Virus genome (UHGV): UHGV-1378212
Origin: a virus
Reading direction: 5' to 3' (one strand)
Length of the DNA: 8,389 nt
Shown: positions 1-8,389 of the stretch, piece after piece
How positions within the stretch are numbered: position 1 is the stretch's first letter
How the letters are laid out: each line of letters starts with the position of its first letter
Notes under the pieces: model-generated
What the model was told of the DNA's origin: nothing
What the model saw: only the letters and a program-made list of their open reading frames with translations
Database searches by the model: none
Made by a program: the position numbers and the translations under genes

Positions 1-55
1 GGACGGATTACCATCAATGTACAAATGTGTCGCTTTACCTTCGCCATTAGATCCT
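1..55. repeat. Terminal direct repeat, copy 1 (identical to 8288-8342): assembly overlap of a circular genome
   Basis: 55-nt string ggacggattaccatcaatgtacaaatgtgtcgctttaccttcgccattagatcct occurs at 1-55 and again at 8288-8342; sequence diverges only where adapter begins. Confidence 0.9.
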
Positions 56-213
56 ATCGATCGTACTTTCATCGTTGCTTCATGCGAGCCGCGAACAGTC
101 AGTCGCTTAACGGTTTCCCACTCAATTGCACCGTCAGCATCAACGCTGACAACACTCCCCGCCGGAAGCGGTTTGTGTGTGCAAGGGAAAATCCCGGTAA
201 GCCAATCGATCAC
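1..213 (-). CDS. II: Replication initiation (nicking) protein gene II, N-terminal segment; joins 7448-8342 across the circular junction (about 350 aa total). Likely GTG start at 211-213
   Basis: Hand translation of minus strand from 213 downward gives (M)IDWLTGIFPCTHKPLPAGSVVSVDADGAIEWETVKRLTVRGSHEATMKVRSIGSNGEGKATHLYIDGN..., continuous with the 287-aa ORF at 7448-8311; starts MID like recalled M13 pII; SD-like GAGGA 7 nt upstream of GTG; in-frame stop at 262-264 bounds the ORF; alternative GTG at 253-255 lacks an SD. Confidence 0.75.
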   Translation of the reverse strand, partial: MIDWLTGIFPCTHKPLPAGSVVSVDADGAIEWETVKRLTVRGSHEATMKVRSIGSNGEGKATHLYIDGNPS

Positions 214-382
214 GAATAAATCCTCAAAATTGCAAAAATGACGACTTACTAACACATGAGTTCAGTAGTTCATTAGTGTTTTAACATTACATCAGTGAGC
301 TAGTGAGTTCAAGAGGCTTGGATGATATGAGTTCATGAGCATGTATACTCACTTCAAATATTGCATTGAACGAGCGTAAAAA
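214..382. promoter_or_regulatory. Divergent control region between gene II (minus) and the plus-strand cassette; contains iterated ATGAGTTCA/GTGAGTTCA motifs; candidate operator and/or plus-strand origin
   Basis: TGAGTTCA at 257-264, 304-311, 328-335 (9-mer ATGAGTTCA exact at 256-264 and 327-335); tandem AGTGAG at 294-299 and 302-307; TATACT -10-like hexamer at 344-349; divergent gene starts at 213 (minus) and 383 (plus). Confidence 0.45.
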
Positions 383-565
383 ATGGCAAAGCGCACGACT
401 TATAACGTGACGGAAGAAAGAAAAATGAAACTAGAACGACTGGCTATAAATGCCAGTGTAAAACTAGGAAAAACAATTACATGGACAGAGATTTTAGGTT
501 ATCTGATTGATAACTACTCTAAAGATGCAGCAGAAGATCTCATGTCTGCCAAACAAAAGGATTAA
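383..565 (+). CDS. Small DNA-binding protein, ribbon-helix-helix (CopG/Arc-like) candidate; possible repressor
   Basis: 60-aa ORF MAKRTTYNVTEERKMKLERLAINASVKLGKTITWTEILGYLIDNY...; N-terminal basic beta-strand (KRTTYNV) followed by two predicted helices with G-x-T at helix-2 start fits RHH pattern; no clear SD (possible leaderless or weak RBS); first gene of a terminated plus-strand operon. Confidence 0.45.
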   Translation: MAKRTTYNVTEERKMKLERLAINASVKLGKTITWTEILGYLIDNYSKDAAEDLMSAKQKD

Positions 566-610
566 GTACCACGAATGGTACAAACGTGCAGTATTACCAA
601 CACTGCACGT
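566..610 (+). promoter_or_regulatory. Two adjacent perfect stem-loops immediately after the RHH gene stop
   Basis: Hairpin 1: GTACCA-cgaa-TGGTAC at 566-581; hairpin 2: ACGTGCAGT-attaccaac-ACTGCACGT at 584-610, followed by T-rich tctagtttgt. Confidence 0.5.
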
Positions 611-680
611 TCTAGTTTGTGCAAAACTTAAACAAAAAGTAAGTCATCGAGATAAACAAAACGAGTCAAAGTATATACTG

Positions 681-821
681 ATGAATACGCCAAAAAAAAG
701 TGAACAAAAACAGAATGATAAGCAACAAGGCTTTGCCCAAGATGGTTTGGACACATCTAAAGCAAAAAGGCTTTTAGAAAAAGCTCAACAATCCACTACT
801 AAACCAACACAAGGAAAGTAA
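681..821 (+). CDS. Hypothetical small hydrophilic protein (46 aa), Lys/Gln-rich; C-terminal motif shared with the next ORF
   Basis: ATG at 681 is the first plausible start after the RHH stop within the 507-821 ORF; stop TAA 819-821 sits 1 nt before the next ATG (823); C-terminal GLDTSKAKRLLEKAQQS resembles GLNTSKASSLLAKIQSQS of the next ORF; no SD seen. Confidence 0.35.
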   Translation: MNTPKKSEQKQNDKQQGFAQDGLDTSKAKRLLEKAQQSTTKPTQGK

Positions 822-822
822 T

Positions 823-1098
823 ATGTTATCTTTTCAGGTTTTCCTTTTTAAAAAAGCATTAGAGGAAGAATTAGATATAATCAAATGGCATCCAACAAAT
901 GAACAATTGGAGGAGATGTTCAATGAGATAAAAAAACTCAGTGGCAATGAAAGCATCACTGAAGTTGAAAATATCGTTCATCGAATTTACAAAAAACCGA
1001 TTACAAGAATGATTTGTAATGGATTGAATACATCGAAAGCAAGTTCGCTATTGGCAAAAATTCAATCCCAGTCAAATAACACTCAACAAAAAAGATAG
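823..1098 (+). CDS. Hypothetical protein (91 aa)
   Basis: ORF MLSFQVFLFKKALEEELDIIKWHPTNEQLEEMFNEIKK...; SD-like AGGAAAG 6 nt upstream of ATG; stop TAG 1096-1098 overlaps the next start (GTG 1098); C-terminal motif paralogous to previous ORF. Confidence 0.55.
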   Translation: MLSFQVFLFKKALEEELDIIKWHPTNEQLEEMFNEIKKLSGNESITEVENIVHRIYKKPITRMICNGLNTSKASSLLAKIQSQSNNTQQKR

Positions 1099-1802
1099 TG
1101 AAATCAGATATGGATGTTCACGGTATCATTGATAATCAAAAAAAAGAAATTGAGCGTTTATATGAAAAATATACTGAGTCATTAGAGTGTTACCTATCTG
1201 GTAAATGTGATTTTGATACCGTGAATTCATGTGGAGACAGTTTTTTCGGCTATTTAGAACACTGCGCTGCACATAACAGAACAGTAGATGAATTAAATAA
1301 TACTCAATGGAATCAATGGCTTGCAGAAACATGCATTGATGTTCTTCACCTTATCTTAGCTCATTACAAAAAATATAGAGAGGTAATGAATGATAATAGT
1401 ATTAAACCAAGCTCCACTGCTTTTGCTTCAATGCAAAGGATAGTAAAAGCCCATGACAAACGTTCTGCAAAAGAAATAAGGAATCTTTTCGTTAATGAAG
1501 ATATGCCAGTATATGGATTTGACAATAAAGGAAAAGAAAAATTGACAAAAGCACACGAGAGAATAGCGGCATTTAGCTTTGGCATTTTACTTGTTATTCT
1601 TTTTATAATAATCGCAATATTTATACCTAATCCAACGAACTTTCAATACACTTTCTTTCGAATAATTCTTTCAGCAGCAGTTGCTGGGGTAGTCTCATTT
1701 ATACCCGGGTTTATAGAAGTCAAAATATCAAACTGGGTAAGAGCAGGTGGAGCATTAGCTGTATTTGTGATTGTCTATTACGTGGCTCCCGCAGCATTAT
1801 GA
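1098..1802 (+). CDS. Hypothetical membrane protein: Cys-rich soluble N-terminal domain (~165 aa) plus three predicted C-terminal transmembrane helices; candidate effector/exclusion protein
   Basis: 234-aa ORF (GTG 1098, alternative ATG 1110); hydrophobic stretches AAFSFGILLVILFIIIAIFIP, FFRIILSAAVAGVVSFIPGFI, AGGALAVFVIVYYVAPAAL at the C-terminus; five Cys in the N-terminal domain; followed by an intrinsic terminator. Confidence 0.6.
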   Translation: MKSDMDVHGIIDNQKKEIERLYEKYTESLECYLSGKCDFDTVNSCGDSFFGYLEHCAAHNRTVDELNNTQWNQWLAETCIDVLHLILAHYKKYREVMNDNSIKPSSTAFASMQRIVKAHDKRSAKEIRNLFVNEDMPVYGFDNKGKEKLTKAHERIAAFSFGILLVILFIIIAIFIPNPTNFQYTFFRIILSAAVAGVVSFIPGFIEVKISNWVRAGGALAVFVIVYYVAPAAL

Positions 1803-1832
1803 ATTGGTTCGCACAATGACGTTATGCTAAAG

Positions 1833-1870
1833 AGGCCGCTGCGGGATTCTATTTTCGCAGCGGCCTTTTC
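1833..1870 (+). terminator. Rho-independent terminator of the plus-strand cassette (possibly bidirectional, between convergent genes)
   Basis: Perfect 11-bp stem AGGCCGCTGCG (1833-1843) / CGCAGCGGCCT (1856-1866), 12-nt loop, followed by TTTT (1867-1870); lies between orf234 stop (1802) and the convergent minus-strand orf77 stop (1938). Confidence 0.75.
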
Positions 1871-1937
1871 AACATAACGAGTCGTACATTATGCGCACCA
1901 ATGGTAAGGATGGTGGGAACTGGCGTTACCGGTGCCG

Positions 1938-2171
1938 TCATTGGTCACAGACCGTAATCCACTGGCCCAGGACGTCTTTCAGGCAATGTTGGCATAAATC
2001 CAGTTTTAAGCGATTACTGTCACCAAAAATTGAACCGTATCCAGCTAAGTGATTAACAGACAGAAACTCATTGAACTCAATGTCATCTACCACCGTCTTC
2101 GCATGGCGACCACAGCGATCGCAGGTCTTCGCACATAACATTACAGTATCGCTGGATGTGAAAAATTGCAT
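1938..2171 (-). CDS. Hypothetical zinc-ribbon protein (77 aa) with two CxxC pairs
   Basis: ORF MQFFTSSDTVMLCAKTCDRCGRHAKTVVDDIEFNEFLSVNHLAGYGSIFGDSNRLKLDLCQHCLKDVLGQWITVCDQ; CDRC and CQHC separated by ~41 residues; strong SD GAGGAG 5 nt upstream of ATG (minus strand). Confidence 0.65.
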   Translation of the reverse strand: MQFFTSSDTVMLCAKTCDRCGRHAKTVVDDIEFNEFLSVNHLAGYGSIFGDSNRLKLDLCQHCLKDVLGQWITVCDQ

Positions 2172-2244
2172 TTTATCTCCTCGTAATGCTGCCGCGCCGA
2201 ATCAGCAATAACGCTAAAAAAACAGAATTGTTCGGCTTGGCCAA

Positions 2245-2285
2245 CCCCGGACACTAACAAAAGCAAGTTTTGTCACTGTCCGGGG
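2245..2285 (-). other. Stem-loop between orf102 and orf77 (possible terminator/attenuator or single-strand origin hairpin)
   Basis: CCCCGGACA (2245-2253) pairs with TGTCCGGGG (2277-2285); inner ACAAAA/TTTTGT pairing in the loop; a run of seven T on the phage strand lies ~30 nt downstream. Confidence 0.45.
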
Positions 2286-2288
2286 TTA

Positions 2289-2597
2289 TCATATAAACCA
2301 ATAGACCGTCCTTACGCCATTCTGGTTATCAATAACATAGCCGCATTGTTTCCTTAAAAATTCTTCTGCTAAATCAATGGCTTTTAAAGAAATCTCATAA
2401 GAAGGAAGTAAAGTGTATCCTTTCCCTTCACTGGCAGCTGCTTTGATCGCATCCAGAGTATTATCAATCAGTAACAGAGCAAGTGATGCTTCATTTACCT
2501 GAGCCGAAGAACTTCTGGCTGCAAGTGTCATTGTTTTTGCTTCTTCCGCTGTAATCGTTCGTTCTGCCAGAGCAGATAAAATCCCATAAGAATCCAT
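2289..2597 (-). CDS. Hypothetical protein (102 aa), phage-sense cargo gene
   Basis: ORF MDSYGILSALAERTITAEEAKTMTLAARSSSAQVNEASLALLLIDNTLDAIKAAASEGKGYTLLPSYEISLKAIDLAEEFLRKQCGYVIDNQNGVRTVYWFI; SD-like GGGGT 6 nt upstream of ATG; no family recognised. Confidence 0.55.
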   Translation of the reverse strand: MDSYGILSALAERTITAEEAKTMTLAARSSSAQVNEASLALLLIDNTLDAIKAAASEGKGYTLLPSYEISLKAIDLAEEFLRKQCGYVIDNQNGVRTVYWFI

Positions 2598-2617
2598 TAG
2601 TTACCCCAATCAATAAT

Positions 2618-2677
2618 GTCCATTTGATGGATAGCGAGCAGGGCTCACGCACCTACCCGCTATCCATCAAAGTGGAC
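2618..2677 (-). terminator. Long imperfect hairpin at the 3' end of gene IV: candidate gene IV terminator and/or packaging-signal hairpin
   Basis: GTCCATTTGATGGATAGCG (2618-2636) pairs with CGCTATCCATCAAAGTGGAC (2658-2677) with one bulged base, ~21-nt loop; overlaps the gene IV stop (2667-2669); in Ff phages the packaging signal is a long hairpin directly after gene IV. Confidence 0.5.
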
Positions 2678-3932
2678 GAATGATATGTGCTGTAAGCAAA
2701 ATATACATAATACGCTGTTCATTGCTGTCTGCCTTGCTACTGAAAATCCAGCCTATAAGAGGAATTTTACTTATAACTGGAACTGAACGCTCAGCATTGC
2801 TAAACGATGAATCGATAAGCCCCCCCAATAACAACGTCTGACCATCCTTAATCTGGACTGTCGTCTGAATCTGGCGCTGATTAGTAATAATATCGGATGC
2901 CTGATCATCATTGCTGATTGAATCAGCGCGAGTGTCGATAGTCAGAACTAGTTGCCCGTTACCCATGACAACAGGCGTTACCTTGAGAGAAACGCCAACA
3001 TCATGACGCTCGATAGTCTGAAACGGATTATTTACCCCGGCAGATTCGCCCGTTACCTTTCCGGTGATAAACGGCACATTCTTACCTACGGAAATGTAAC
3101 CAGTCTGACCAGACTGAGTAAGAATACGCGGCGTTGAAATCACCTTAGAGCGTGAATTACTCTGGACAGCACGCAGAGACAGCGCCAACACGTTACCATC
3201 AAAAATACCAAAAGAACCGCCCGCCGTAGAAAGAGCGCTACCCAGTGCAGAAGTATTAAAGCCCCCCGCAACCTTATGACCGGATGCAGAACCTGCCGCA
3301 AACGATAAATCAACGCCATCAGACAAGCTGGTTTCAAACATCAGCGACTGAATGAGAACCTGATCGCGGGCAACATCCACAGAATTGATAAAATCGGACA
3401 GAACCGGCAGCAGCTCGTCAGGCGCAGAAACAATCAGCGAGTTATTGCCTGGATAATCCACGACATTACCACCACCATTAGAATCAAGATAAATTTTAAT
3501 CAGTTGCTGAACATCGGACGATCTAACTTTTGTCAGCTTAAAATTTCTGACCGTAAGCGCCACAGGTACTGGCTGGTAAGATGGCTCAGAAGGAAAAGTA
3601 TCATAAGACTGGTTATCAGAATCATCGGAATCCGAAACCATCTGTGAAGGTAATTTAGACGGCAAAGAGACTACCGCAGGATTGCCAGAAAGCATGACAA
3701 AACCGTTAGCATTCAGAACAGACTTAAAGAAATCATCAATATTTGTTGGATTAACATCAGCATTAAATACGGTTACGTTTCCTTTAATATCAGGATTAAC
3801 AATAACAGGCTTGCCAGTTTTTGAAGAATACCACTGAACAAATGAGCGAACAGATGAATTGTTTAAATTAACAGTTTCAGCAGAAACGCAGAATGAACAG
3901 GCAAATAAAAAAGCAACAATAACAGAGCGCAT
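2667..3932 (-). CDS. IV: Gene IV secretin (phage export channel, pIV)
   Basis: From internal ATG at 3930-3932: MRSVIVAFLFACSFCVSAETVNLNNSSVRSFVQWYSSKTGKPVIVNPDIKGNVTVF... resembles recalled M13 pIV N-terminus (signal peptide then VIEMNNSPLRDFVTWYSKQSGESVIVSPDVKGTVTVY); AGGAG upstream; the 452-aa track ORF is an upstream in-frame extension that overlaps gene I. Confidence 0.9.
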   Translation of the reverse strand: MRSVIVAFLFACSFCVSAETVNLNNSSVRSFVQWYSSKTGKPVIVNPDIKGNVTVFNADVNPTNIDDFFKSVLNANGFVMLSGNPAVVSLPSKLPSQMVSDSDDSDNQSYDTFPSEPSYQPVPVALTVRNFKLTKVRSSDVQQLIKIYLDSNGGGNVVDYPGNNSLIVSAPDELLPVLSDFINSVDVARDQVLIQSLMFETSLSDGVDLSFAAGSASGHKVAGGFNTSALGSALSTAGGSFGIFDGNVLALSLRAVQSNSRSKVISTPRILTQSGQTGYISVGKNVPFITGKVTGESAGVNNPFQTIERHDVGVSLKVTPVVMGNGQLVLTIDTRADSISNDDQASDIITNQRQIQTTVQIKDGQTLLLGGLIDSSFSNAERSVPVISKIPLIGWIFSSKADSNEQRIMYILLTAHIIRPL

Positions 3933-3939
3933 AATAATA

Positions 3940-4314
3940 TTACTCCTGACAGATAACAGTCTGTAAATAACGGCCTTTTCTAATAACAACACGACAGGCA
4001 TCTTTAATATCAACGGAATAACCATCTTTAATCAAATCAAAATACTGATATTTCGTACCTTTTGCATCAACAAACGTAACGGAAACGTCAAAGCCAAGTT
4101 GTGAAAAAGAATTAATAGAAAGTCGGGGTAAGTCACTGGACGAATCAGGCGTTACCGCCCTCGCCTGTTCAGCATAAGCAGATTTAATAGCGGAGATTTC
4201 ATCAACATTCTTTCCAGACTGGAGCCAGAAACCAAGCGCAAGCCCCAGCGCCAAAAAAGAAAGCATTAATATAAGACGGTTCGATTTGCGAAAATAAATT
4301 TTCGTGAGGCGCAT
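3940..4314 (-). CDS. XI: Gene XI (pXI), in-frame internal start within gene I
   Basis: Internal Met at residue 241 of pI (ATG at 4312-4314, minus strand) begins MRLTKIYFRKSNRLILMLSF..., matching the position and sequence of M13 pXI start (MKLTKIYLKKFSRV...) including the membrane-spanning segment. Confidence 0.6.
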   Translation of the reverse strand: MRLTKIYFRKSNRLILMLSFLALGLALGFWLQSGKNVDEISAIKSAYAEQARAVTPDSSSDLPRLSINSFSQLGFDVSVTFVDAKGTKYQYFDLIKDGYSVDIKDACRVVIRKGRYLQTVICQE

Positions 4315-5034
4315 ATAATAATTAAATCCTCTGTGAACAGAAAATTGACCGTGCGTGATAAATGGTGGCAAAAGCGAATAAGCACCATGCGGATAGTTAT
4401 CAGTAAAAACCTGTTTTGTATTGTAGGCGGAATATAATGATTTTCCGGTGTATATCCATTTATCAACAGTAATTGAATTAACGTTATCACCATATTTGAC
4501 AATGCCAAAGTGTACCTTTGGTAAAGAAAATCGCGCCCCTGAAACCAAATTCATAATGGAGCCAACAAAAGGAATGTTTAATTTATCTGAACGGCGACAA
4601 TAAACAACATGCTCAGCAAGCGCCAGACGAGCTTGCTTATCCATTATCGAAATATCCTGAATCAAAAATATAATATCCCAGCCTAATTTTCTGGCATGTA
4701 AAAACCAGTCAATAACAGGTTGTCTGTCTTTATCACCCCATGAGCGGGAATTAAACCAAGTACCACATTCATCAAGTACAAGGAGGCCATTACGGGATTC
4801 ATCGTAAGATGTATTCCCAATACCAATAGCAAGTAAATCATTTAATGAAGGCTTGTCAGGAATGCGAATAACGCGCGTTTTTTTCGCATAACGCCCAACC
4901 ATAGGCATATTATGCAATTTAAGATCAAGATTAGTGGCAACAGGACAACCCTTAGCAAGTCTTTCCTGTATTCTGGAAACACTAACAAGTGTCTTGCCTG
5001 AGCCTAATTTGCCTGTTACTACATGAACCGCCAT
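3940..5034 (-). CDS. I: Gene I assembly ATPase (pI, Zot-like), Walker A GKLGSGKT
   Basis: 364-aa ORF MAVHVVTGKLGSGKTLVSVSRIQERLAKGCPVATNLDLKL... very similar to recalled M13 pI (MAVYFVTGKLGSGKTLVSVGKIQDKIVAGCKIATNLDLRL...); start abuts gene VI stop (TAAATG). Confidence 0.95.
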   Translation of the reverse strand: MAVHVVTGKLGSGKTLVSVSRIQERLAKGCPVATNLDLKLHNMPMVGRYAKKTRVIRIPDKPSLNDLLAIGIGNTSYDESRNGLLVLDECGTWFNSRSWGDKDRQPVIDWFLHARKLGWDIIFLIQDISIMDKQARLALAEHVVYCRRSDKLNIPFVGSIMNLVSGARFSLPKVHFGIVKYGDNVNSITVDKWIYTGKSLYSAYNTKQVFTDNYPHGAYSLLPPFITHGQFSVHRGFNYYMRLTKIYFRKSNRLILMLSFLALGLALGFWLQSGKNVDEISAIKSAYAEQARAVTPDSSSDLPRLSINSFSQLGFDVSVTFVDAKGTKYQYFDLIKDGYSVDIKDACRVVIRKGRYLQTVICQE

Positions 5035-5376
5035 TTAAATCACCCTGTTTGCATAATCAAGAAATTTTTGTTTTAAATCGAAAACAAAAACACTGATACG
5101 AGTAACCATAATAACGTTAACACACGCCTGAAAATGGTCAGGCAATACAGACGCCATTAAATGGGAGAAATCAGCAGGTAAACCGTTATACATGACCTCA
5201 GCAAGGTACTGCATTAAAAGCGTAACAGTTGTTGTAATTAATGCGACCAATGCAAAGGCGATTAATCCTGTTCTGGTAGCAAGTCGAGCTAAAAAACTCG
5301 CCACATAGCCAATAAACAAAGGAACAAGACCAATAAGAAAACGCAACAATGCAGGAATACCTAATAATAAAGGCAT
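5035..5376 (-). CDS. VI: Gene VI minor coat protein (pVI)
   Basis: [32 protein letters not shown]...FVFDLKQKFLDYANRVI resembles recalled M13 pVI (MPVLLGIPLLLRFLGF...FIFDVKQKIVSYLDWDK); ATG at 5374-5376 overlaps gene III stop by 1 nt (track ORF starts one codon earlier at GTG 5379). Confidence 0.9.
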   Translation of the reverse strand: MPLLLGIPALLRFLIGLVPLFIGYVASFLARLATRTGLIAFALVALITTTVTLLMQYLAEVMYNGLPADFSHLMASVLPDHFQACVNVIMVTRISVFVFDLKQKFLDYANRVI

Positions 5377-6626
5377 CACTCACCCCCTTTGCGAAGCAAT
5401 GAAGTTAAAGAAGTAAAGACATACCAGAACGTAAGGCAATAAAAAACCCATGAAAGAACATCTTTAATAGTCAGTAATTTATCGCAACCAATATCAATCT
5501 GATAAACCTCTCCGGGAAAAATAATAAAATCAGAGCAGCCGTTACCATTGGGTAAATTAGGCAGCATAGCACCTTTATTTAAAAATGCTTCCCATAAAGC
5601 ACCGTGAGAATCCTTTTCAATTCCCAATTCAGAATCAGCCAAAGTAGAAGCGCCATCTAATTCAGAGTCGCCCTTTCCATAACGAGAATCACCACCTGAA
5701 GGGTCAGCAAAACGGCCAGCCCCCCGCGTAAGATTGTTAATGGAATCGTCAAGACGATTTATATTATTCCTAGTTTGTTCATCGGCATTTTTTTTATCAT
5801 CTGATGAAGTGTCTTTCTCCGTTAATTTATCATGAATATCGCTGGCTATTTTGGGTGAAGCACCTTCGATAGCAGACTGAATATCACCTTTAGAAAGACT
5901 GGAACCACTAAAGCCACCGCCAGAACTACCGCCACCGGACTCACCACCGCCAGAACTACCGCCACCGGACTCACCACCGCCAGACTCACCACCGCCAGAC
6001 TCACCACCACCATTTTGGGGGGTTGAGGGTTTATCAGAGGGGTCAGCTACAGTACCTGTAGGCTTCCATGTTGCAGCGCAAACAGTACCATCACCCTGAC
6101 AAACAATGACACCAGTAGCCTCATATTCACAGCCGTTATAGTAGATATAACGACCACCATCATATGAATCAACATTATTAAATACACCTTCTTCTGGCGG
6201 CTTCGCTTCACAAATTTCTTCTGGTGTCGGGTCAGTAGGTTTTTCATCAGGAACAGAACGCTGAATATCACCAACAATATAAGCCGTTAAAGACCAATAT
6301 TTATCCTTCTGCCCTGGTGAATCGCTGTAAGTACAATCACCAGTAAAAACAAGACGGAATTCAGAATCAGGCCAGATACCCTCATAAGTTGGTTTAACCT
6401 GAGTAAATACACTCTGAGCACTGGATTTAGCACCCTGACAAGCGGAGGCCTGCATAGCAGCATCAATATAGTAAACCGTTGACTTAGAGCCATCCTGATT
6501 GGTTATTTGCTTACTTTCAGCGTAGGCAGAGCTTTGATAAGTGGATTTAGTAATGCTTTCCCATGACTCAGCATGTGAAAAAGGAGAAATGAGGACAGCG
6601 GAAAGAATTAATATTTTCCTTTTCAT
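5376..6626 (-). CDS. III: Gene III adsorption / minor coat protein (pIII) with signal peptide, Gly-rich linkers and C-terminal anchor
   Basis: From internal ATG at 6624-6626: [19 protein letters not shown]|ESWES... signal peptide; Cys-rich N-domains; linker [33 protein letters not shown]; hydrophobic C-terminal anchor; position after gene VIII terminator; the 464-aa track ORF is an upstream extension overlapping gene VIII. Confidence 0.9.
5914..6011. repeat. Tandem direct repeats (2 x 30 nt, then 2 x 15 nt) encoding the Gly/Ser/Glu linker of pIII
   Basis: ccaccgccagaactaccgccaccggactca at 5914-5943 and 5944-5973; ccaccgccagactca at 5974-5988 and 5989-6003. Confidence 0.9.
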
Positions 6627-6635
6627 AGTAACCCG

Positions 6636-6663
6636 CTTTAATAAAGGGGCAACGAGTGCCCCT
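6636..6663 (-). terminator. Rho-independent terminator after gene VIII (before gene III)
   Basis: On minus strand GGGGCA-ctcgt-TGCCCC stem-loop (plus coords 6646-6662) followed by TTTATT; same location as the central terminator of Ff phages. Confidence 0.8.
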
Positions 6664-6672
6664 GAGTGAAAT

Positions 6673-6915
6673 TCAAACCGCTTTTGAAGAGAATTTTTTG
6701 AAAATACGAATGGCAAGCCCAGCGCCAACCACAGCCACAACAACAGGCCATACTTTACCAATGAGATCATTTGCCTGAGTCAACAAAGCATCCATTGCCT
6801 GACCTGCATAATCAGTACCACCTGTAGCGCCTTCAGCCGCAAAAGAACTTGCAGAAACAAAAAGCGCAGTTGAAGCCAGAGCAACTTTATATTTAACAGT
6901 AGACAGAATTTTCAT
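6673..6915 (-). CDS. VIII: Gene VIII major coat protein (pVIII) precursor
   Basis: [26 protein letters not shown]|[54 protein letters not shown]: signal peptide, acidic N-terminus, hydrophobic core, basic C-terminus KKFSSKAV typical of Ff/IKe coat proteins; SD GGAG 8 nt upstream. Confidence 0.95.
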
Positions 6916-6934
6916 AGGAATAACTCCATTAAGG

Positions 6935-7030
6935 TTACATTAATCGGTCAGAAAATGATTTAAATGAACCGACCGCATAGAAAAGGGCAAAACCAAAGGT
7001 ATAAGCCCCGAAGAAATAAACGATATACAT
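6935..7030 (-). CDS. IX: Gene IX minor coat protein (pIX), 31 aa
   Basis: MYIVYFFGAYTFGFALFYAVGSFKSFSDRLM, a small hydrophobic protein between gene VII and gene VIII as in Ff; its ATG overlaps the gene VII stop (TAATG); the 74-aa track ORF is an upstream extension. Confidence 0.65.
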   Translation of the reverse strand: MYIVYFFGAYTFGFALFYAVGSFKSFSDRLM

Positions 7031-7116
7031 TAACGAAAGACCCCCGCAGTAATCGCGCCGAGGCCAAAAGAAATAACGATGCCAGACGCTATCAAAATTT
7101 GAATAACATCGTCCAT
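7030..7116 (-). CDS. VII: Gene VII minor coat protein (pVII), 28 aa
   Basis: Hand-translated MDDVIQILIASGIVISFGLGAITAGVFR (ATG at 7114-7116, stop at 7030-7032); small hydrophobic protein in the canonical position after gene V; below the ORF-track size cutoff. Confidence 0.6.
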   Translation of the reverse strand: MDDVIQILIASGIVISFGLGAITAGVFR

Positions 7117-7118
7117 AT

Positions 7119-7436
7119 TTAACCTTTGATCTCTGCGATGCCACCATCGGAAGAAACATTATAAGTTACACCTTCCCTACCCTCCATTGACCACGCACGG
7201 ACATAGACAGGAATTTGAACTAATTTCCCAATGAAAGCATTCGCCTGGTTCATTAGACCTGCGTTAACGAGAGTCTGAGAAACTCGAATAATAATTTGAT
7301 CCTGCTTTGTACCACCAAAACCATCAGGTATTTCAAGGCCAATACCAATTTCATTATAATAGCCCTGACCATTAACTTTATTACGTTGGCGGGCTCCCAA
7401 CATTTTACCCTTAACGAAAAGACCATAATTAGACAT
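7119..7436 (-). CDS. V: Gene V ssDNA-binding protein candidate (105 aa), divergent from Ff pV
   Basis: ORF in the canonical position between gene II/X and gene VII; weak resemblance to M13 pV (G-x-x-Y-x-NE region); assignment rests mainly on synteny. Confidence 0.6.
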   Translation of the reverse strand: MSNYGLFVKGKMLGARQRNKVNGQGYYNEIGIGLEIPDGFGGTKQDQIIIRVSQTLVNAGLMNQANAFIGKLVQIPVYVRAWSMEGREGVTYNVSSDGGIAEIKG

Positions 7437-7447
7437 ATTACTTTCCT

Positions 7448-7762
7448 TTAATGCCAGCTACTGGCGTGCGAAATACGGTTGTAATCGAAAATAAAACCTT
7501 TCTCATAAATCCATAAGGGGATTTCCACTGGCTTGGCTTCCAGCGTTCTTATTAGCGGAACAACGTTATTAGAGTCTGGTGAATCACAATAGAAATTAAT
7601 ATCGATACCGAACGAAAGCAATTCTCTTCTATGGCGATAAAAAGTGTTATGAGGTAACATTTCTTTCATGTTAGCCCCTTGTTTCCAAAGTAAATAAGTT
7701 GACTGTATTTTTCTTGGCAGTTTCGTTATTTTTTCATCACTTAAAATAGCATTCTGATTCAT
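7448..7762 (-). CDS. X: Gene X (pX), in-frame internal start within gene II
   Basis: Internal ATG at 7760-7762 begins MNQNAILSDEKITKLPRK..., comparable to M13 pX start MNIYDDSAVLDAIQSK and in the equivalent position in the C-terminal third of pII. Confidence 0.55.
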   Translation of the reverse strand: MNQNAILSDEKITKLPRKIQSTYLLWKQGANMKEMLPHNTFYRHRRELLSFGIDINFYCDSPDSNNVVPLIRTLEAKPVEIPLWIYEKGFIFDYNRISHASSWH

Positions 7763-8342
7763 TTCTATTCTCCCTACATATTCAGAGAATAATTGACGTG
7801 GTGTTTTCATATTCCAGTTAGCGCCAAGCGTTAAATTTAAATCAATAAGCTCAGTTGTTCTTAATGTTAATTCAATACGTAATTTATCTTTCGTCCAGTC
7901 CAGTAACCCGGCTCGTACAAAATCTTCGGCTATCTGGTGCCCTTTTTTACCCGAAACGTGTTCATCATATTTTGAATAAAATTTCAGACTCCATCGACGG
8001 GAGTTTTTACCTAAATAAACTGTACCGCCTTTCCCACATGCGCGACCATGGCGTGTTTTAGCTTTAAATTCGGCGGCATAAAGCCATGATCTGACATTTT
8101 CTAGCGTAGATAATGAATACATGTAATTAATGTCAACACGTGAAATTTTATACTGACCTGCTATAACAGCTTTATAAGACGCTAAATCATGAGGAATATT
8201 CAATAAGGATAAAATCCTGGCATAGACCGTCAACATGAGCCCTTGTATATCATCCGACCCAACAACAGAATGCCCCTGCAAAAACTTGGACGGATTACCA
8301 TCAATGTACAAATGTGTCGCTTTACCTTCGCCATTAGATCCT
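7448..8342 (-). CDS. II: Gene II replication initiation protein, C-terminal segment (continues at 56-213 via circular junction)
   Basis: 287-aa track ORF plus upstream in-frame codons to 8342; C-terminus ...NNVVPLIRTLEAKPVEIPLWIYEKGFIFDYNRIS matches recalled M13 pII C-terminus (NNVVPLVRFINVDFSSQRPDWY); the track start at 8311 is a TTG, not the real start. Confidence 0.9.
8288..8342. repeat. Terminal direct repeat, copy 2 (identical to 1-55)
   Basis: Exact 55-nt match to window start. Confidence 0.9.
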
Positions 8343-8389
8343 GTCTCTTATACACATCTCCGAGCCCACGAGACGTAGAGGAATCTCGT
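8341..8389. other. Sequencing-library adapter read-through (Tn5 mosaic end plus Nextera adapter with an index-like 8-mer), not biological sequence
   Basis: CTGTCTCTTATACACATCT (Tn5 mosaic end) followed by CCGAGCCCACGAGAC, 8 nt GTAGAGGA, then ATCTCGT (start of ATCTCGTATGCCGTCTTCTGCTTG); begins exactly where the terminal repeat stops matching. Confidence 0.9.

Follow-up and report, generated by a model that had tools for sequence, protein, structure and literature searches.

UHGV virus genome UHGV-1378212, the 8,389-nt stretch analysed here (hereafter the window), consists of an 8,287-bp cycle, a 55-nt k-mer overlap and an adapter tip, as left by the assembly of a Nextera short-read library. 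The cycle is very probably one complete unit of a temperate filamentous phage of Enterobacterales that resembles Lineavirus and belongs to the UPΦ viruses. Three features define the structure of the contig:

1–55: first copy of a terminal direct repeat, an assembly overlap within gene II, identical to 8288–8342
8288–8342: second copy of the terminal direct repeat, identical to 1–55
8341–8389, plus strand: Nextera adapter read-through with index, an artefact rather than phage sequence, starting with CTGTCTCTTATACACATCT and sharing its first two bases with the phage sequence

The repeat is exact over all 55 nt, which makes a chance explanation unrealistic, and the identity ends at position 56 versus 8343. 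The tail, which we take to be Nextera read-through with an i7 index, begins at 8341 with CTGTCTCTTATACACATCT and continues with CCGAGCCCACGAGAC-GTAGAGGA-ATCTCGT to 8389 (read in combination, CTGTCTCTTATACACATCTCCGAGCCCACGAGAC-GTAGAGGA-ATCTCGT); this tip is untrimmed and non-biological. When the contig is circularised at 8,287 bp, the gene II frame is free of stop codons from window position 213 through the circular join to 7448 and encodes 350 amino acids, and RefSeq annotates the same gene of 1,053 nt. Furthermore, 8,287 bp is exactly the spacing of two tandem copies in Escherichia coli 85.0412. The overlap, the passage of gene II across the contig ends and a complete inovirus unit of about 8287 bp had all been proposed in the initial annotation, and each is borne out. 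The same annotation called the genome circular; the unit is indeed complete, but because these phages form tandem arrays, circularity of a short-read contig is not sufficient proof of a free circle. The record needs trimming of the 55-nt overlap and of the 47-nt adapter tail, and relabelling as a UPΦ virus, neither an Ff/IKe phage nor CUS-1; the contig can then be taken as a clean complete genome of a published phage group.

The core of the unit comprises the replication, virion and assembly genes and two associated hairpins:

1–213, minus strand: 5' part of gene II, continuing over the circular join (frame seen after circularising)
7448–8287, minus strand: 3' part of gene II, rolling-circle initiator of 350 aa in total with a GTG start at 213 (Pfam Phage_CRI, 5e-69; G2P_X_C, 5e-29)
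7448–7762, minus strand: gene X, 104 aa, from an internal in-frame ATG in gene II preceded by the Shine-Dalgarno sequence GGGAG; aligns to residue 1 of I2-2 pX
7119–7436, minus strand: gene V, single-stranded DNA (ssDNA)-binding protein, 105 aa (Pfam Putative_G5P, 7e-51)
7030–7116, minus strand: gene VII, 28 aa (Pfam Inovirus_G7P_2; 70% identical to IKe and I2-2)
6935–7030, minus strand: gene IX, 31 aa, its start overlapping the gene VII stop (53–57% identical to I2-2 and IKe pIX; PHROG 28333)
6673–6915, minus strand: gene VIII, major coat protein, 80-aa precursor (Pfam Phage_coatGP8, 5e-19)
6636–6662, minus strand: GC-rich hairpin and T-run past gene VIII (GGGGCACTCGTTGCCCC TTTATT), terminator-like and in the Ff position
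5376–6626, minus strand: gene III, attachment protein, 416 aa (Pfam G3P_pilus-bind, 6e-26; Phage_Coat_A, 8e-6; 52–53% identical to IKe and I2-2)
5035–5376, minus strand: gene VI, 113 aa (Pfam DUF5455; 52–53% identical to IKe and I2-2 pVI)
3940–5034, minus strand: gene I, Zot-type assembly ATPase, 364 aa (Pfam Zot, 3e-40; 66% identical to IKe)
3940–4314, minus strand: gene XI, internal to gene I, from an ATG with a Shine-Dalgarno sequence
2667–3932, minus strand: gene IV, outer-membrane secretin, 421 aa (Pfam Secretin, 6e-43, Secretin_N and GspD N0; 72–73% identical to IKe and I2-2)
2618–2677, minus strand: candidate packaging (morphogenetic) signal, formed by a long and nearly perfect hairpin at the stop of gene IV (DNA fold −24.7 kcal/mol, z −7.4)

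Pfam families match every core gene except that for the 31-aa pIX, which was recognised through its PHROG family and the pIX proteins of IKe and I2-2. As the initial annotation had read from the sequence, the core follows the Ff order, II(X)-V-VII-IX-VIII-III-VI-I(XI)-IV, entirely on the minus strand, with overlapping stop and start codons (TAAATG at VI/I, TGATG at III/VI and TAATG at VII/IX) and in-frame internal starts for X (ATG at 7762) and XI (ATG at 4314, Met241 of pI, yielding 124 aa), each preceded by a Shine-Dalgarno sequence. The IKe type proposed for the coat protein C-terminus proved correct as well, the coat protein being 60% identical to IKe g8p. The attachment protein has the IKe-type domain order, a pilus-binding domain followed by a TolA-binding-type (Phage_Coat_A) domain, and its Gly-rich linker (GGGSE/GGGES) is encoded by 15-nt tandem repeats at 5914–6018. 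The number of linker repeats differs among otherwise near-identical prophages, whose g3p is 406–461 aa long. The hairpin at the end of gene IV aligns with the regions of IKe and I2-2 annotated as the morphogenetic signal. The terminator-like hairpin past gene VIII was read from the sequence, having been missed by a simple promoter and terminator scan that returned fewer sites than in shuffled sequence. Taken together, the unit encodes what characterises the Inoviridae: a pII-type initiator with pV, g8p with g7p, g9p, g3p and g6p in conserved order, and a Zot-type pI with a secretin.

Comparison with classified phages refines the label Ff/IKe-like, which stands for one part of the genome only. 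All ten core genes are collinear and homologous with those of I2-2 (Lineavirus I22, NC_001332), with amino acid identities of 56% for pII, 41% for pV, 70% for pVII, 53% for each of pIX, pVIII, pIII and pVI, 64% for pI and 73% for pIV, so that by sequence I2-2 is the nearest classified phage overall. In IKe (NC_002014) the virion and assembly proteins are 52–72% identical, with the same type of coat C-terminus and g3p domain order, and IKe-like is thus correct for morphogenesis (52–73% across IKe and I2-2). By contrast, pII is only about 20% identical to that of IKe and no similarity of pV to IKe pV was detected, whereas pII and pV are 86% and 93% identical to those of YpfΦ; judged from these sequences, the replication genes are of the I2-2/YpfΦ type and not of the IKe type. 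The genus assignment is similarly divided. The collinear, homologous ten-gene core at 41–73% amino acid identity to I2-2 is that of a Lineavirus, but lineaviruses are episomal and have neither genes nor an attP in their intergenic region: I2-2 (6,744 bp) does not integrate and lacks the attP, h1/h2, reverse-strand genes and cargo found here. Likewise, IKe does not integrate. The Ff paradigm, too, holds for the core but leaves out approximately 29% of the unit (window 214–2666), which contains four opposite-strand ORFs, two genes after gene IV and a dif-like attP. This non-Ff part of about 2.4 kb accommodates the attP, a candidate origin hairpin, a candidate for a small divergent regulator, h1/h2 and three cargo genes. 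A classical non-integrating phage of the Ff/IKe type would account well for how the genes are ordered and for virion and assembly genes like those of IKe, but neither for the replication proteins nor for the six additional ORFs, the dif-like attP and, above all, the identical copies integrated at dif that are described below; we consider such a phage highly improbable, and the prophage junctions refute it.

The gene content instead matches a group that has already been named. Shapiro and Putonti (2020, Virus Evolution 6:veaa030) describe UPΦ viruses as phages with an I2-2/IKe-like core, in which gII and gV are more than 85% identical to those of YpfΦ; they carry the genes h1 and h2 and, beside dif, ORFs in reverse orientation, integrate in tandem at that site and vary in the GGGES linker of g3p. 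The window encodes genes I, II, III, IV, V, VI and VIII together with h1 and h2; gII and gV are 86% and 93% identical to their YpfΦ counterparts, beyond which only pIV (27%) is shared with that phage; and integration in tandem at dif is seen in the 100% identical copies present in complete genomes. The window contains exact matches to all three published UPφ901 primers, at 6027–6046, 6477–6496 and 2551–2570, and one copy in the prophage array of strain ECONIH2, an array discussed by Shapiro and Putonti (2020), is 100% identical to the window. The element, which RefSeq genomes contain at 100% identity, has therefore been described before, and the finding, although genuine, is not novel. What the initial annotation missed are this membership and the temperate lifestyle evident from identical copies standing in tandem at dif. 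Phages of the UPΦ group are common among strains of uropathogenic E. coli and among related Enterobacterales.

Two published statements weigh against the assignment. The length given for UPφ901 is 7,560 bp, against 8,287 bp here, and the authors could not infect new hosts with it (Shapiro and Putonti 2020). The length gap suggests that the cargo of the window may differ from that of UPφ901 (h4, h5); moreover, the name UPφ901 itself would require at least 99% amino acid identity to the reference (UMB0901, NZ_PKHH00000000).

Integration was examined in complete genomes. In a megablast search against 5,426 complete E. coli genomes, at least 80% of the unit was covered in 47, in several of them at 100% identity, whereas a search against 50,697 phage records yielded only about 190 nt of similarity in gene IV and no close relative in that collection. 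At dif, next to hipA, E. coli 85.0412, MS 200-1 and ECONIH2 carry tandem prophages that are 100% identical to the window. In strain 85.0412, two head-to-tail copies spaced by 8,287 bp reside between hipA and a LysR pseudogene, with dif beyond. The hipA-side junction (attL) reads host-GGTGCGCATAA|TGTACGACTCGTTATGTTG... (also given as host-GGTGCGCATAA|TGTACGACTCG...), the copy-to-copy junction is the circular sequence through attP, and the far junction (attR) reads ...CCATTGGTGCGCATAATGTATATTATGTTAAAT (also given as ...GGTGCGCATAATGTATATTATGTTAAAT) and represents an intact dif. Tandem arrays bounded by a hybrid site and, at the opposite end, by an intact dif are the signature of Xer-type integration (IMEX). 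Given that no integrase was found among the ORFs or the Pfam, NCBIfam, PADLOC and PHROG family matches, the junctions at dif point to a temperate phage that depends on host Xer recombination. The phage partner in this reaction is a single feature:

1806–1899, minus strand: attP, two inverted dif-like sites around a GC-rich hairpin, recognised from the prophage junctions and an ssDNA fold

On the phage-sense strand, site A reads GGTGCGCATAA-TGTACGACTCG (11 nt)-TTATGTTGAAA from 1899 down to 1867, and the inverted site B reads GGTTCGCACAA-TGACG-TTATGCTAAAG at 1806–1832. The 15 nt GGTGCGCATAATGTA at 1885–1899 are identical to E. coli dif, covering the XerC arm and the next four bases, and the XerD-like arm lies 11 nt away from the XerC arm. 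Folded as ssDNA, the 131-nt attP region reaches −31 kcal/mol (z −6.1), with the XerC-type arms pairing together and the XerD-type arms likewise; across 11 sequences, 89% of the cells in the hairpin are paired, with five two-sided changes compared to 0.5 expected. An arrangement of this kind has been proposed for YpfΦ and proven for CTXφ. From the attP structure, we infer that the phage would integrate by an ssDNA route, the one argument being that the 11-nt gap between the XerC and XerD arms is too wide for a normal duplex site; the junctions themselves fit ssDNA or double-stranded DNA integration equally. Two points count against this reading of the hairpin: all five two-sided changes derive from a single Brenneria sequence, the hairpin being otherwise highly conserved, and the GC-rich inner stem with its flanking A/T runs could serve as a bidirectional terminator between convergent genes.

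By description, the integration system closely resembles that of CTXφ, which also relies on host XerCD without an integrase, carries an attP of two inverted dif-like sites that folds on the plus strand, regenerates dif at one end, forms tandem arrays, encodes a regulator divergently from the replication gene and has accessory genes flanking its core. The two differ in that ssDNA integration is proven for CTXφ and inferred here, and in that the window encodes a pIV secretin; to our knowledge, CTXφ encodes no secretin of its own.

The tandem arrays bear directly on the nature of the sequenced molecule. The circle could be the collapsed repeat unit of a prophage array at dif, closed by a de Bruijn assembler with no free molecule behind it. 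UPΦ prophages do occur as 2 to 15 head-to-tail copies, in which consecutive copies are linked by the same sequence as the circular join through attP, and short-read assemblies are reported to fail to resolve such arrays (Shapiro and Putonti 2020). Yet the contig runs unbroken through attP (1806–1899) and ends only at the adapter tip inside gene II, whereas in the assembly of an isolate the hipA-side and dif-side junctions would, to judge from assembler behaviour, branch the graph at attP and stop the contig there. The unbroken attP mildly argues for a graph free of host branches, such as that of a replicative form, virion DNA or a high copy number, and we regard a collapsed array as possible, though on balance doubtful.

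Previously known filamentous prophages at the same site are YpfΦ of Yersinia pestis and CUS-1φ of extraintestinal pathogenic E. coli (ExPEC), and the window could in principle be one of these dif-integrating filamentous prophages, as was first suspected from the dif integration by hipA. The likeness is considerable: the same integration site, tandem arrays, an attP 93–99% identical in nucleotide sequence, the same origin hairpin, similar gII and gV, and variable genes next to attL. For a direct comparison, a pII scan of species-representative genomes recovered a tandem YpfΦ in Y. pestis with a period of 8.74 kb. This locus shares with the window gII–gV (80% in nucleotide sequence), attP, the hairpin region and a short h1–h2 stretch, but at the protein level only pII, pV and the distant pIV at the identities given above; its structural and assembly genes are otherwise unrelated and have no nucleotide similarity, h1 and h2 are absent, and the YpfΦ-like phages have a helix-turn-helix (HTH) regulator in contrast to the orf60 product of the window. 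CUS-1 of E. coli O18:K1:H7 has been reported to be 99% identical to YpfΦ over 7.1 kb, and identity of about 99% over this 7.1-kb core is not seen at the Y. pestis locus. We therefore reject CUS-1/YpfΦ as the identity of the window; of the readings weighed here it is the least probable.

A YpfΦ-like inovirus also turned up outside the chromosome. It is catalogued as a 9,565-bp E. coli 'plasmid' (NZ_CP128883.1) and is, in addition, integrated, apparently in tandem, in a Klebsiella pneumoniae IncFIB/HI1B plasmid; its attP and origin hairpin are as in the window, its structural genes are different and it encodes an HTH regulator.

A similar cataloguing raises the question of whether the window itself might be a small cryptic plasmid. 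Its relative in PLSDB, the Salmonella 'plasmid unnamed2' of 7,938 bp (NZ_CP140410.1), is 98.9% identical over 86% of the unit and has been typed as non-mobilizable. Nevertheless, this record carries the full inovirus gene set and is thus best understood as a phage replicative form, and Shapiro and Putonti (2020) report DNase-protected UPφ901 DNA in culture supernatants. A plasmid is accordingly hardly credible, and the UPΦ virus remains the identity that we adopt.

The remainder of the unit consists of small genes and non-coding elements arranged around attP and a second conserved hairpin:

257–339: four to five TGAGTTCA-type repeats, candidate operators in the divergent control region, kept in the Brenneria relative
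383–565, plus strand: orf60, small helical protein, divergent from gene II and positioned as rstR in CTXφ and YPO2273 in YpfΦ
580–610, minus strand: hairpin ACGTGCAGT-gttggtaat-ACTGCACGT preceding TTGT, a module junction and candidate for the plus-strand origin (pII nick site)
681–821, plus strand: orf46, cargo, annotated in RefSeq (PHROG 6875)
823–1098, plus strand: orf91, cargo, with a PHROG match alone
1110–1802, plus strand: orf230, cargo, all-helical in its N-domain and with three transmembrane helices as a C-terminal module
1938–2171, minus strand: h2, 77 aa, with two CxxC pairs and a PHROG of its own
2243–2287, minus strand: hairpin with 20-nt arms in the h1–h2 spacer (z −5.5)
2289–2597, minus strand: h1, 102 aa, restricted to the UPΦ group and containing the published IntCheck_RV primer site

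The hairpin at 580–610 provides the only non-coding match to I2-2 (27 nt, located there in the intergenic region). UPΦ and YpfΦ-like phages share this hairpin whereas IKe lacks it, and it hence tracks the type of pII; from this sequence pattern, pII may be predicted to nick there. The cargo is located exactly between attP and this hairpin, so that the module boundaries coincide with the attP core and the hairpin. When the flanks of the hairpin were compared (150 nt on the cargo side), they were found to assort independently. The window and a copy with a second cargo (cargo B) in ECONIH2 match at 100% on the regulator side but have unrelated cargo sides; the same ECONIH2 copy and the YpfΦ-like phage on the Klebsiella plasmid show the converse, with 99% identity on the cargo side and unrelated regulator sides; and the latter phage agrees at 99% with Y. 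pestis YpfΦ on the regulator side, their cargo sides being unrelated. In addition, the Salmonella replicative form carries a Doc/Fic toxin in the cargo slot. The G+C content of the cargo region (501–1500), 33–34% compared to approximately 36–48% in the rest of the unit, fits a separate origin of the cargo.

The array of ECONIH2 (L018, 1573000–1603000) comprises three UPΦ copies with two cargos, their core proteins having identical RefSeq accessions. The hipA-proximal copy contains the cargo of the window, and the two dif-proximal copies contain a 140-aa ORF, a zinc-binding protein of the ECs_2282 family and a 159-aa ORF. The same order of copies is found in a further locus (L023).

Davis and Waldor reportedly showed a mechanism of origin-to-origin exchange for CTXφ. 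Replication from the origin of one prophage to that of the next copy is also cited for CTXφ by Shapiro and Putonti (2020), and the assortment of the hairpin flanks is what would be expected from such replication in a mixed array. We tentatively propose, as a possibility that falls short of our favoured expectation, that the interval between attP and the origin is an exchangeable slot: in a mixed array, origin-to-origin replication would package the downstream cargo with the upstream core and thereby move cargo between unrelated inoviruses, namely UPΦ and YpfΦ-like phages, and the cargo seen in the window, in the Salmonella form and in ECONIH2 may consist of exclusion, defence or addiction genes. 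The placement of the origin, the two-site attP and the module boundaries are not described in the part of Shapiro and Putonti (2020) available to us. The candidate origin, the two-site attP and cargo that reassorts exactly at these two points, even with YpfΦ-like phages, offer handles for experiments.

These elements can be combined into a putative life cycle. The viral (+) strand would correspond to the minus strand of the window. The initiator pII, of the I2-2/YpfΦ type, would nick the conserved hairpin at 580–610 and launch rolling-circle replication; pV would coat the plus strand, with the hairpin at the end of gene IV as the presumed packaging signal; and pI/pXI together with the pIV secretin would extrude a virion built of pVIII, pVII/pIX and pIII/pVI. 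For integration, the CTXφ/YpfΦ-type attP would fold as a forked hairpin on the plus strand, and host XerC and XerD would recombine it with the chromosomal dif, leaving a hybrid junction next to hipA and, at the far end, an intact dif. Because the dif at the far end is intact, further copies can enter and tandem arrays build up. Lysogeny or replication would be regulated by orf60 and the TGAGTTCA repeats, and the segment between attP and the origin is a cargo slot, the content of which differs between otherwise identical phages.

The six accessory ORFs produced no credible Pfam, NCBIfam or PADLOC match, each belonging only to its own PHROG without assigned function, and sequence searches of the PDB with orf60, h1, h2 and orf230 yielded no match. 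The orf60 protein is probably h3 of the UPΦ paper. By analogy with the regulators that occupy the same position in other phages, orf60 with its repeats is likely a regulator of lysogeny or replication and a candidate repressor. A single-sequence model of orf60 (pLDDT 76) shows three helices without a significant fold match, which leaves an earlier notion of a ribbon-helix-helix repressor unsupported. The two CxxC pairs of h2 suggest that it is probably a zinc ribbon. For h1, a homology search among 5.8 billion proteins retrieved close relatives only. Full-length homologues of orf230 are found in Proteus, Pectobacterium, Aeromonas and Microbulbifer, and its transmembrane module also occurs behind other N-domains; an AlphaFold model (pLDDT 83, all-helical) had no significant fold match in the PDB. 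The exact orf230 protein is widespread in public assemblies, and the ten places shown are all in UPΦ prophages.

Between h1 and h2, about 106 nt of the spacer (2172–2288) are 88% identical to YpfΦ despite unrelated flanking genes. On sequence grounds, the spacer hairpin is possibly a minus-strand origin, as part of a shared replication module, or a terminator. An Rfam search of the window returned nothing above noise.

Several further observations concern the wider distribution of these sequences. About 72 nt of attP (1806–1877), comprising the inner GC hairpin and the second dif-like site without the exact XerC arm, are 88–93% identical to an element on approximately 490 plasmids, mostly conjugative E. 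coli IncF plasmids, where it adjoins the 3' end of unrelated genes (positions 3001–3071 of locus L008 and 3001–3074 of locus L009). On pJIE186-2, for example, the adjoining gene is one of the STM4504/CBY_0614 family beside those of a MacB-family efflux pump, and on an IncHI plasmid it is a hypothetical gene. The many matches probably represent one ancestral locus copied along with the plasmid. Two metagenome-assembled genomes (MAGs) attributed to other bacteria contain a pII of this family, namely JARKOR010000214.1 from a 'Candidatus Nanosynbacter' MAG (98% amino acid identity) and JAUMZL010000036.1 from an 'Aerococcus' MAG (85%). The former contig holds a near-complete UPΦ prophage whose attL flank resembles that of E. 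coli, and both are probably mis-binned enterobacterial DNA. Finally, a single chromosome, that of E. coli EC5502 (NZ_CP092647.1), contains 15 matches to gene III, a pattern that suggests either a very long tandem array or many insertions.

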